Of a stretch of DNA of 64,000 nucleotides, positions 28,914-31,197 are shown one piece after another. This DNA comes from Escherichia coli (GTDB taxonomy: Bacteria > Pseudomonadota > Gammaproteobacteria > Enterobacterales > Enterobacteriaceae): NCBI RefSeq assembly GCF_044324875.1, contig NZ_CP172185.1; one strand, written 5' to 3'. Numbering within the stretch: position 1 is the stretch's first letter; every line of letters begins with the position of its first letter. The notes under the pieces were generated by a model that was not told the DNA's origin, made no database searches, and was given only the letters and a program-made list of their open reading frames with translations. Position numbers and translations under genes: made by a program.

Positions 28914-29160
28914 GCTTATTCTCAGGGCGGGGCGAAATTCCCCACCGGCGGTAAATCAACTCAGTTGAAAGCCCGCGAGCGCTTTGGGTGCGAACTCAAA
29001 GGACAGCAGATCCGGTGTAATTCCGGGGCCGACGGTTAGAGTCCGGATGGGAGAGAGTAACGATTCTGTCGGGCATGGACCCGCTCACGTTATTTTGGCT
29101 ATATGCCGCCACTCCTAAGACTGCCCTGATTCTGGTAACCATAATTTTAGTGAGGTTTTT
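28914..29160 (+). promoter_or_regulatory. sroG: FMN riboswitch (RFN element) in the ribB leader
   Basis: Conserved FMN-aptamer blocks present: CAGGGCGGGGCGAAAUUCCCCACCGGCGGUA, GCCCGCGAGCG, GCCGACGGUUAGAGUCCGGAUGGGAGA, followed by the expression platform and SD GAGG. Confidence 0.85.
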
Positions 29161-29165
29161 TTACC

Positions 29166-29819
29166 ATGAATCAGACGCTACTTTCCTCTTTTGGTACGCC
29201 TTTCGAACGTGTTGAAAATGCACTGGCTGCGCTGCGTGAAGGACGCGGTGTAATGGTGCTTGATGATGAAGACCGTGAAAACGAAGGCGATATGATCTTC
29301 CCGGCAGAAACCATGACCGTTGAGCAGATGGCGCTGACCATTCGCCACGGTAGCGGTATTGTTTGCCTGTGCATTACTGAAGATCGCCGTAAACAACTCG
29401 ATCTGCCAATGATGGTAGAAAATAACACCAGCGCCTATGGCACCGGTTTTACCGTGACCATTGAAGCGGCTGAAGGTGTGACTACCGGTGTTTCTGCCGC
29501 TGACCGTATTACGACCGTTCGCGCAGCGATTGCCGATGGCGCAAAACCTTCTGATCTGAATCGCCCGGGCCACGTTTTCCCACTTCGCGCGCAGGCAGGT
29601 GGAGTACTGACGCGTGGCGGTCATACTGAAGCAACTATTGATCTAATGACGCTGGCAGGCTTTAAACCGGCTGGTGTGCTGTGTGAGCTGACTAATGACG
29701 ATGGCACGATGGCGCGTGCACCAGAGTGCATTGAGTTTGCCAATAAACACAATATGGCGCTCGTGACTATTGAAGATCTGGTGGCATACCGTCAGGCACA
29801 TGAGCGTAAAGCCAGCTGA
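29166..29819 (+). CDS. ribB: 3,4-dihydroxy-2-butanone 4-phosphate synthase
   Basis: 217-aa ORF with the [10 protein letters not shown] motif. Confidence 0.95.
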
Positions 29820-29851
29820 AAACCGCTGCTTAATTTACTGCCTTAATCAAG

Positions 29852-29888
29852 AAACCGAAGTTGTAGCAGGCTTCGGTTTTTATTTTTC
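29852..29888 (+). terminator. Rho-independent terminator of ribB
   Basis: AAACCGAAG / CTTCGGTTT stem followed by TTTTATTTTT. Confidence 0.75.
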
Positions 29889-30080
29889 CCTGCTATGCAA
29901 GATGTTAATTCCGCTTCTCTTTCTATGAGAAAATTTCATTAATATCAGGCATTCTTTTTCATTATGATCAAAATCATATAATTGTTCCGTTATTATGCGA
30001 CCATATGAATATATCCGAAAAAGGATATGTGAAATTTATGCGCTAAATGTTTAGTATTGTTAAATATTAAGGGTAAAAGG

Positions 30081-30251
30081 ATGTTTATCGCCTGGTACTG
30101 GATTGTATTGATTGCTCTGGTTGTGGTGGGTTATTTCCTGCATTTAAAACGTTATTGTCGGGCGTTTCGCCAGGATAGAGACGCACTGCTTGAAGCGCGG
30201 AACAAATACTTAAACAGTACGAGAGAAGAGACAGCCGAAAAGGTAGAATAA
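30081..30251 (+). CDS. Small single-TM protein, 56 aa (MFIAWYWIVLIALVVVGYFLHLKRYCRAFRQDRDALLEARNKYLNSTREETAEKVE)
   Basis: ORF with SD AAAAGG 5 nt upstream of the ATG, one hydrophobic helix and a charged tail. I have a vague recollection of a small annotated gene at this position in E. coli but cannot confirm it. Confidence 0.45.
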   Translation: MFIAWYWIVLIALVVVGYFLHLKRYCRAFRQDRDALLEARNKYLNSTREETAEKVE

Positions 30252-30268
30252 GACTTTAGTGAAGCTGA

Positions 30269-30299
30269 CAGAAGTTGTCCATGCGCTGGACAACTTCTG
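30269..30299. terminator. Hairpin between the small ORF and the 3' end of zupT
   Basis: 13-bp perfect stem CAGAAGTTGTCCA / TGGACAACTTCTG with TGCGC loop. Confidence 0.6.
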
Positions 30300-30308
30300 A
30301 TGTTGCTT

Positions 30309-31082
30309 TTAACCAATTCCCGCCGTTTGTAGCAGCACTAAACTGAATCCCATCACTGACATTCCACATAGTACGCCATAGCTGGGGTTATTATTAGGGT
30401 CAATCTCTTTGGCGAGCGGCATTAATTCATCAACCGAGAGCGCCACCATAATTCCTGCAACCGCCGCCATGATTGCCGCCATGACCACCGGGGAAATCAT
30501 GCTACCGAGGATTAACCACGCCAGCACACCACCAAGAATTTCTGCCAGTCCAGAAATCCCCGCCCACAGAATCGCGGTACGTTTCGATCCTGTTGCAGCG
30601 TAAACCGGCCCTGCAACGGCCAGACCTTCAGGAATATTGTGCAACGCTACGGCCAGGGCGATACCAAATCCCAGCTCCAGGTTGCTGCTCGCCGTGACAA
30701 AGGTGGCAATCCCTTCCGGGAAGTTATGCAGACTGATACCGAGAGTGAGCAGAATGGCTGTGCGCTTGATCGATTTTGGCAACGGCTGCACCGATTTTTG
30801 CATTAAATCCTGCGGATGCGCATGTGGCAACATGCGGTCCAGGCCAAAATAGCCAAGCAGACCGAAGATAAACATTCCATAACCCAACACAGGCGACATT
30901 CCTTCAGCTGCTAGTGCGGCAGGAAGCATTTCCATTAATGAGATGAGCAACATGATCCCCGCCGCAAATCCTAGCGAAAACGCCAGTAAGCGGTTCGAGG
31001 GTTTTTGCCCGAGAACGCCGAGAAACGCGCCAATAAACGTGGCTGCCCCCGCCAGTATGGTCAGAATGAGAGGTACTGACAT
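30309..31082 (-). CDS. zupT: ZIP-family zinc transporter
   Basis: 257-aa protein [20 protein letters not shown]... from the ATG at 31082 (SD AAGGAG); conserved HNFPEG / HNIPEG motifs. Confidence 0.92.
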
Positions 31083-31197
31083 CGACAACTCCTTATAAAT
31101 CTTCACCTTCAGGCAGATCGTCAAAATAACTGATGATCATCATCATTGTTATCCGGGTTCTTACTCCGCCGAACAAGCGTATTGTGAGGATATCAAA

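Follow-up and report, generated by a model that had tools for sequence, protein, structure and literature searches.

Among the small bitopic membrane proteins of Escherichia coli, AcrZ acts with AcrB, MgtS with MgtA and PitA, MntS with MntP, and MgrB with PhoQ. Proteins of the ZapG/YhcB type consist of an N-terminal transmembrane (TM) anchor and a cytoplasmic helical domain, and YhcB has a defined family, DUF1043. Here we report a computational analysis of a 56-codon open reading frame between ribB and zupT in a stretch of 64,000 nucleotides of E. coli DNA (contig NZ_CP172185.1), the whole of which is termed the window. An earlier note on this DNA, made from the letters alone, had proposed that the frame is a gene for a small single-TM protein of a kind often missed in annotation. 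The frame is indeed a genuine gene of this type and lies where the note had placed it (30081–30251, plus strand). It is yqiD (b4756), which is already named, annotated and experimentally validated in K-12.

YqiD is like AcrZ, MgtS, MntS and MgrB in its size class (∼30–60 residues), single predicted TM helix, narrow taxonomic range and apparent possession of its own transcription unit, and the same kinds of tagging and ribosome-profiling work brought all of them to light. With 56 residues and one predicted helix it falls within the size and single-TM definition of the small bitopic regulators. However, YqiD has no sequence similarity to these four proteins, and its cytoplasmic helix motif is longer and strongly conserved. 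The predicted layout, in which an N-out TM anchor leads into a charged cytoplasmic helix, is also shared with the ZapG/YhcB type, but YhcB is more than twice as long as YqiD and DUF1043 is not matched by it. YqiD is one among many confirmed E. coli small membrane proteins. Taken as a whole, the explanation that we favour, with high confidence, is that the frame is yqiD, that it is translated and under selection, that its product is very probably a bitopic membrane protein, and that this protein may, by analogy, be an adaptor.

The reading frame between ribB and zupT is yqiD

The frame extends from an ATG at 30081–30083 to a TAA at 30249–30251 on the plus strand and comprises 56 codons followed by the stop. 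The encoded protein (MFIAWYW...EKVE) is identical to K-12 YqiD (WP_000469266.1) at 56/56 residues, by comparison with the sequence in Table 1 of PMC6001520 and with the K-12 locus (L001), and the two genes differ at two nucleotides, both synonymous. When the region 29820–30320 was compared by megablast with 5,426 complete E. coli genomes, the RefSeq/PGAP feature beneath the match was ‘protein YqiD', and the label ‘yqiD: protein YqiD' was present in 24/24 of the K-12-type genomes sampled. The RefSeq coding sequence in K-12 and in the closest strain corresponds exactly to 30081–30251 (positions 1762–1932 in L001 and L002), and the gene is thus not one that annotation has missed, contrary to what the note had implied.

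The window is E. coli chromosome, which also holds ubiK and ygiD. The neighbours of yqiD are ribB (29166–29819, plus strand) and zupT (30309–31082, minus strand). An FMN riboswitch lies upstream of ribB (28914–29062, 120.9 bits), and a scan of the region for RNA families gave nothing else of significance. In the mechanically generated list of open reading frames, zupT runs to a TTG at 31124 (271 residues); annotated ZupT begins at the ATG at 31082 and has 257 residues (MSVPLILT...).

Both experimental approaches that the earlier note had suggested as checks, ribosome profiling and chromosomal epitope tagging, have given positive results for this gene in K-12. It is listed in Table 1 of VanOrsdel 2018 (PMC6001520) as flanking zupT/rib, at 3183381–3183551, with 56 residues and the sequence found here, and is among the 36 small proteins detected in that study by chromosomal SPA-tagging and immunoblotting. 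The same paper mentions yqiD as positive in a tetracycline ribosome-profiling screen, and the tagged protein accumulates during normal growth in LB (PMC6001520). A translation initiation peak on the same ATG was recorded by tetracycline ribosome profiling (TetRP) as the sORF M_ECK3031_3032_3181573, of 56 residues, in Table S5 of Nakahigashi 2016 (PMC4909307), and the DNA and protein sequences of this entry are the same as those of yqiD. The gene has surfaced more recently as well. GFP reporter fusions were used to test the upstream regions of 18 genes including yqiD, which was also one of four genes for which the effect of variants agreed across GWAS, a promoter model and the reporter (bioRxiv 10.1101/2025.06.10.658842). 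The identifier b4756 also appears in a 2026 paper on NAD capping, as the last locus on a plot axis. The searchable literature yielded no functional study of E. coli YqiD and no experiment on its localisation, topology, partner or phenotype. Most matches to ‘yqiD' concern the ispA-like yqiD of Bacillus subtilis, an unrelated enzyme gene that has the name alone in common with the E. coli gene.

Coding potential and translation start

Open reading frames of the size of yqiD are common in the window by chance. Conservation of the frame, the third check proposed in the earlier note, was assessed here in a species-level genome scan. The 27 loci obtained belong to Escherichia, Citrobacter, Salmonella, Intestinirhabdus and one ‘Enterobacter sp.' An intact ATG-initiated frame of 56–60 codons was present in 27/27 of these loci. 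Over codons 1–42, pS was 0.662 and pN was 0.074 for all pairs (pN/pS 0.11), and the variable columns numbered 20, 15 and 37 of 42 at the first, second and third codon positions, respectively. By these sequence comparisons the YqiD protein is under strong purifying selection, with synonymous sites near saturation. The combination of a frame intact in all 27 loci, a pN far below pS and the TetRP initiation peak excludes a spurious open reading frame.

The ribosome-binding site is probably the AAGGG at 30069–30073 (plus strand), which lies 7 nt before the ATG, or 8 nt in relatives with an extra A, and is kept in nearly all loci, with a calculated duplex with the anti-Shine–Dalgarno sequence of about −5 kcal/mol. 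The AAAAGG previously put forward in this role with a 5-nt spacing (30075–30080) in fact touches the ATG. It was rejected as a Shine–Dalgarno sequence because of this 0-nt spacing and because its GG is not conserved, many Citrobacter having AAAAGA in its place and Intestinirhabdus having AAATA.

A 64-residue form of the protein, initiated at the in-frame codon at −24, is used in many database entries. This codon is TTG in the window and ATG in many Citrobacter. The longer form was rejected, since it is lost through a 1-nt indel or in-frame stops in 13/34 sequences and since TetRP maps initiation to the ATG at 30081. The indel that removes the −24 start sits in a run of A.

Predicted architecture of YqiD and its conserved residues

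Three segments can be distinguished in the protein. A predicted TM helix containing the MFIAWYW motif occupies codons 2–22 (30084–30146), as judged from hydropathy, AlphaFold2 and conservation. It is followed by a near-invariant juxtamembrane block, KRYCRAFRQDRDAL, at codons 23–36 (30147–30188), which is predicted to be cytoplasmic, and by a charged tail at codons 37–56 (30189–30248), in which conservation fades after K42. All three are encoded on the plus strand. The single hydrophobic helix described previously is borne out by a mean Kyte–Doolittle value of 2.43 over residues 2–20 and by the AlphaFold2 model, in which one helix spans residues 2–55. The charged C-terminal tail is likewise evident, as residues 21–56 include 16 K, R, D or E residues in addition to His21. 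The model was built from a 21-sequence alignment and has a mean pLDDT of 73.5, with values of 84–87 over the TM segment and 55–74 beyond it (63–74 in the segment of residues 23–36). The cytoplasmic part would probably be a continuation of the TM helix.

On the basis of these features, YqiD is in all probability a bitopic inner-membrane protein with a TM helix at residues 2–22, an N-out/C-in orientation and the remainder of the chain in the cytoplasm. The orientation is suggested by the positive-inside rule, as the sequence is uncharged before the TM segment and K23, R24, R27, R30 and R33 come directly after it. The net charge of residues 23–33 is +4.

Among 23 family members with identities down to 30%, two blocks are conserved, MFIAWYW (residues 1–7) and KRYCRAFRQDRDAL (residues 23–36). 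A28 and R30 do not vary at all, and conservation reaches at least 90% at R24, R33 and A35. The mid-TM positions are constrained only to be hydrophobic, and beyond ∼K42 the tail varies freely, in its sequence as well as its length, with family proteins ranging from 52 to 74 residues. Of the 23 members, 20 have Cys26, 22 have a Cys somewhere in residues 20–29 and 19 have a His in residues 17–31, and the arrangement in Citrobacter and Salmonella is C20-H21-M22...C26. The KRYCRAFRQDRDAL block is likely to be the functional surface of YqiD. Constraint is thereby mapped to MFIAWYW and KRYCRAFRQDRDAL, including the interfacial Cys, and these are the residues to mutate.

A conserved face on one side of the helix was sought and was not found, as shuffled sequences equalled the observed moment 1,085 and 1,917 times out of 5,000. 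This candidate was rejected as not significant. Within residues 23–36, conservation is spread over all faces of the helix, which does not indicate a simple one-sided helix–helix interface.

The putative yqiD transcription unit

The gene appears to have its own transcription unit, delimited by the terminator of ribB, an upstream palindrome with a −10-like element and a 3′ hairpin. The terminator-like hairpin of ribB is at 29850–29881. In Rfam, the surrounding segment 29818–29888 matched STnc240, an sRNA candidate of Salmonella, below threshold (29.1 bits versus a gathering cut-off of 55, E=0.08), and this segment could be an RNA derived from the 3′-UTR of ribB.

On its left, the conserved yqiD unit is bounded by an invariant 6-4-6 palindrome, TATGAT-CAAA-ATCATA, at 29963–29978, about 105–118 nt upstream of yqiD. 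In a comparison of 13 taxa, the inter-genus alignment starts abruptly at this palindrome, and the sequence 5′ to it is unalignable. The 14-mer ATGATCRAAATCAT, which precedes the ATG, keeps a constant distance from it in 30/38 loci and occurs once in the window, compared with 0.01 occurrences expected by chance. A promoter scan picked the TATGAT within the palindrome as a −10 element, and the palindrome also contains a TGA-N6-TCA core, which we take to resemble the sites of the CRP/FNR family. The palindrome at 29963–29978 is therefore a candidate promoter −10 element and/or CRP/FNR-type operator. A search for literature on FNR, Fur or CRP regulation at the ribB–zupT intergenic region found none. 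The ‘Enterobacter sp.' kpr-6 keeps ATGATCGGGGTCAT, which represents the arms of the palindrome without its centre. The palindrome is absent from the Kosakonia and Phytobacter loci (L031–L033), which share another motif, CTACTTATAAAGTGGTA, ∼75–110 nt upstream of the gene. The YqiD family thus appears to have two promoter/operator types.

Between the palindrome and the ATG is a conserved AT-rich leader or upstream region (29979–30080, plus strand) that includes TGTTAAAT(A/T)TTAAGGGTAAAAGG; the GC content of the stretch 29963–30080 is 27%. The idea that the leader forms a conserved RNA structure, or acts as a riboswitch or thermosensor, was considered and rejected, as RNAalifold gave −3.8 kcal/mol with no compensatory pairs and the z-score of the E. 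coli sequence was −1.1. A local leader hairpin at 30009–30030, AUAUAUCC-GAAAAA-GGAUAUGU, is no more than suggestive, with 82% of cells paired across 11 taxa and two pairs showing compensatory changes; its covariation score was reached by 34 of 500 shuffles.

The 13-bp-stem hairpin that had been described at the end of the gene is found at 30269–30299 (plus strand), 18 nt past the stop codon and between the convergent stops of yqiD and zupT. This terminator-like stem-loop has six G–C pairs and a 5-nt loop and is followed by ATGTTGCTTT, and a folding energy of −22.5 kcal/mol was calculated for its 51-nt context. A stem-loop is present in most loci in which the yqiD–zupT gap is 54–74 nt, and its sequence differs between loci, which looks like structural turnover. 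No hairpin is found where the two stops are 8–21 nt apart (Kosakonia, C. amalonaticus, C. sedlakii, Intestinirhabdus and Enterobacter sp. kpr-6). The same holds for overlapping genes, as in Phytobacter, where the coding regions share 18 nt convergently (L033 4208–4225). In these loci the 3′ ends of the yqiD and zupT transcripts must overlap. Within the hairpin in the window, the minus strand carries a weak promoter-like site (TGGACA-17-TAAAGT, 9/12, from 30281 to 30253) that would point antisense into yqiD. Promoter-like sites in the region number two, compared with 1.6 expected, which is the level of chance.

Distribution and genomic neighbourhood of the family

An exhaustive profile search of 1.84 billion cluster representatives returned 25 proteins only at E≤1e-3. 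The named members are from Escherichia, Citrobacter, Salmonella, Phytobacter/Metakosakonia, Kosakonia, Atlantibacter and unclassified Enterobacter, and the YqiD family thus appears from these searches to be tiny and confined to the Enterobacteriaceae. Searches of Pfam, NCBIfam, PDB, PADLOC and PHROG gave no above-threshold match for YqiD, and no significant similarity was found between YqiD and any characterised small protein. The best scores relative to cut-offs were 19.8/27.7, 14.7/27.2, 14.4/23.7 and 18.2/50 bits (Pfam DUF2621, DUF4381, DUF6526 and ResB; NCBIfam NF038143), and these are compositional matches of the TM segment and the charged helix. Homologues in Citrobacter, Salmonella, Kosakonia and Phytobacter, which have 30–80% identity and belong to the same length class and locus, carry the legacy label ‘DUF4051'. 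No DUF4051 model was returned for 21 members from the copy of Pfam-A searched, and since that copy is without this model the label is now without functional or curated information.

The convergent downstream neighbour is zupT in 27/27 species loci and also in the Kosakonia and Phytobacter loci. In contrast, ribB lies within 3 kb upstream, at variable distance, in 15/25 informative loci only, and not within that range in 10/25. The only stable genomic association of yqiD is therefore with zupT, and the yqiD–zupT link never breaks in the loci examined. Each genome has a single chromosomal place for yqiD (median 1), and the locus is fixed across genera. A mobile or plasmid origin was considered and rejected, as the ‘plasmid' matches are chromosome-sized or large non-mobilizable records; of the five records filed as plasmids, three are 4.8–4.9 Mb and the others are 354 kb and 728 kb. 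One predicted metagenomic protein, P0123 (125 residues), joins the N-terminus of ZupT (∼70 residues) in frame to a C-terminus that resembles YqiD (...CLKRNCRAYRQDRDALQEGYQRAL...). As yqiD and zupT are convergent, this chimera is probably an assembly artefact.

Proposed mode of action and alternatives

We propose, tentatively and at slightly less than even odds, that YqiD is a membrane-anchored adaptor or modulator that would bind a larger inner-membrane protein or complex, by analogy with the small bitopic regulators. A single helix of 56 residues would have no catalytic capacity and could be neither an enzyme nor a transporter. In such a mechanism the TM helix with MFIAWYW would provide anchoring and lateral contact, the cytoplasmic block KRYCRAFRQDRDAL would form a specific recognition surface, and the variable acidic and basic tail would act as a spacer. 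Binding would then alter the activity, stability or assembly of the partner. The contiguous conservation of residues 23–36 on all faces, at the cytoplasmic surface of the membrane, would suit an element by which YqiD recognises and docks on such a partner. AcrZ, MgtS, MntS and MgrB work in this way.

The sole partner candidate to which the data point, weakly, is ZupT, and we consider it unlikely, as its candidacy comes from inherited synteny alone. YqiD might modulate this neighbouring ZIP-family importer in the way that MntS is paired with MntP or MgtS with MgtA, and Cys26 and His21 may sense or bind metal, a reading to which we give an equally low probability. The gene is convergent with zupT at every locus examined, in at least six genera, adjacency to ribB is lost in 10/25 informative loci, and the two genes either have the inter-stop hairpin in common or overlap at their 3′ ends. 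The frequencies of Cys26 (20/23), of Cys in residues 20–29 (22/23) and of His in residues 17–31 (19/23) would also suit a metal-related role. However, the synteny reflects one ancestral position between core genes, kept by descent, and not independent co-occurrence. In addition, the convergent genes are not co-transcribed, neither Cys nor His is present in the family member P0117, and ZupT is widespread where YqiD is absent. A more specific version, in which YqiD would be a lineage-specific accessory subunit or regulator of ZupT whose Cys/His residues and RAFRQDRDAL helix tune the uptake of Zn, Fe, Mn or Co, is slightly less probable still. If true, YqiD would be the first small protein described as regulating a ZIP transporter in bacteria. 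The sole stable association, with zupT, provides a concrete hypothesis that is cheap to test. The conservation of all faces of residues 23–36 is also what would be seen for a helix buried in a bundle, and YqiD could act by itself as a homo-oligomer, for instance as a Cys/His site that responds to redox state or metal, as a scaffold or as a small pore, with no heterologous partner. Hydrophobic or small residues that recur in a rough heptad (L22, F29, L36 and Y43, with A28 and A35) fit this arrangement. Yet the AlphaFold2 monomer is only moderately confident in this segment (pLDDT 63–74) and the hydrophobic moment is modest (0.41–0.45), and we regard self-association as improbable, to about the same degree as modulation of ZupT.

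Two further explanations were considered. YqiD is a peptide both small and hydrophobic, its gene has a leader that is long and AT-rich, and the weak minus-strand promoter-like site (30281 to 30253) would point antisense into the 3′ end of the gene. In these respects it bears some resemblance to a membrane-damaging peptide of the type I toxin kind held in check by an antisense RNA. This is very improbable, as the gene is single-copy at a fixed locus across genera with none on true plasmids, the tagged protein accumulates in normal LB growth, no Rfam sRNA matches over the gene and PADLOC gave no match, and the count of promoter-like sites is that expected by chance (2 versus 1.6). Slighter still is the prospect that the role is mainly at the level of RNA or transcription, through convergent transcription into zupT or translation per se, with the peptide incidental. 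The close (8–21 nt) or overlapping (by 18 nt) 3′ ends in several genera, and the unusually high DNA conservation of the 3′ part of the leader and the first 12 codons, would be compatible with such a role, but the amino acids are strongly constrained and the synonymous sites near saturation (pN/pS 0.11) and no conserved RNA structure was found in the leader.

Allelic variation in E. coli

The K-12-type 501-nt region was matched in 4,432 of the 5,426 genomes. A divergent yqiD allele, detected at ≥90% identity, is present in ∼870 genomes, or roughly 16% of E. coli, and its protein, MFIAWYWIVLIVLLAGGYFLHLKRYCKAFRHDRDALLAARSKLDKRSDKEVFEKHQ, is roughly 69% identical to the K-12 type. The two are annotated inconsistently, as PGAP names the K-12-type allele ‘protein YqiD' and calls the divergent one ‘hypothetical protein' (WP_001296421.1 and WP_338928550.1; L003 4119–4289, L037 3754–3924 and L038 4047–4217). 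The alleles form a sharp mosaic (window 30027–30319 compared with L003 4065–4361). They are 100% identical over 30027–30116, which covers the 3′ part of the leader and codons 1–12, and 57–77% identical per 30-nt block over 30117–30319, which takes in the remainder of yqiD together with the hairpin and the zupT end, and they are identical again further inside zupT. Recombinant forms of the alleles exist, for example P0013.

Upstream of yqiD, 4/4 of the genomes inspected with the divergent allele have either a chaperone-usher fimbrial operon or what is left of one after truncation (L003 1–3549, L037 5–3175, L038 1–3466 and L036 963–2722). Together with the lack of ribB within 3 kb of yqiD in 10/25 informative species loci, this makes the ribB–yqiD junction look like an insertion hotspot. 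In E. coli FCI23, an IS1-truncated remnant of the fimbrial operon is visible between ribB and yqiD. The IS1 insertion/deletion in this strain (L036 2788–3646) took roughly codons 1–28 of yqiD and part of the fimbrial operon, leaving only ...FRHDRDALLAARSKLDKRSDKEVFEKHQ of the gene, and yqiD is thus dispensable in at least one clinical isolate.
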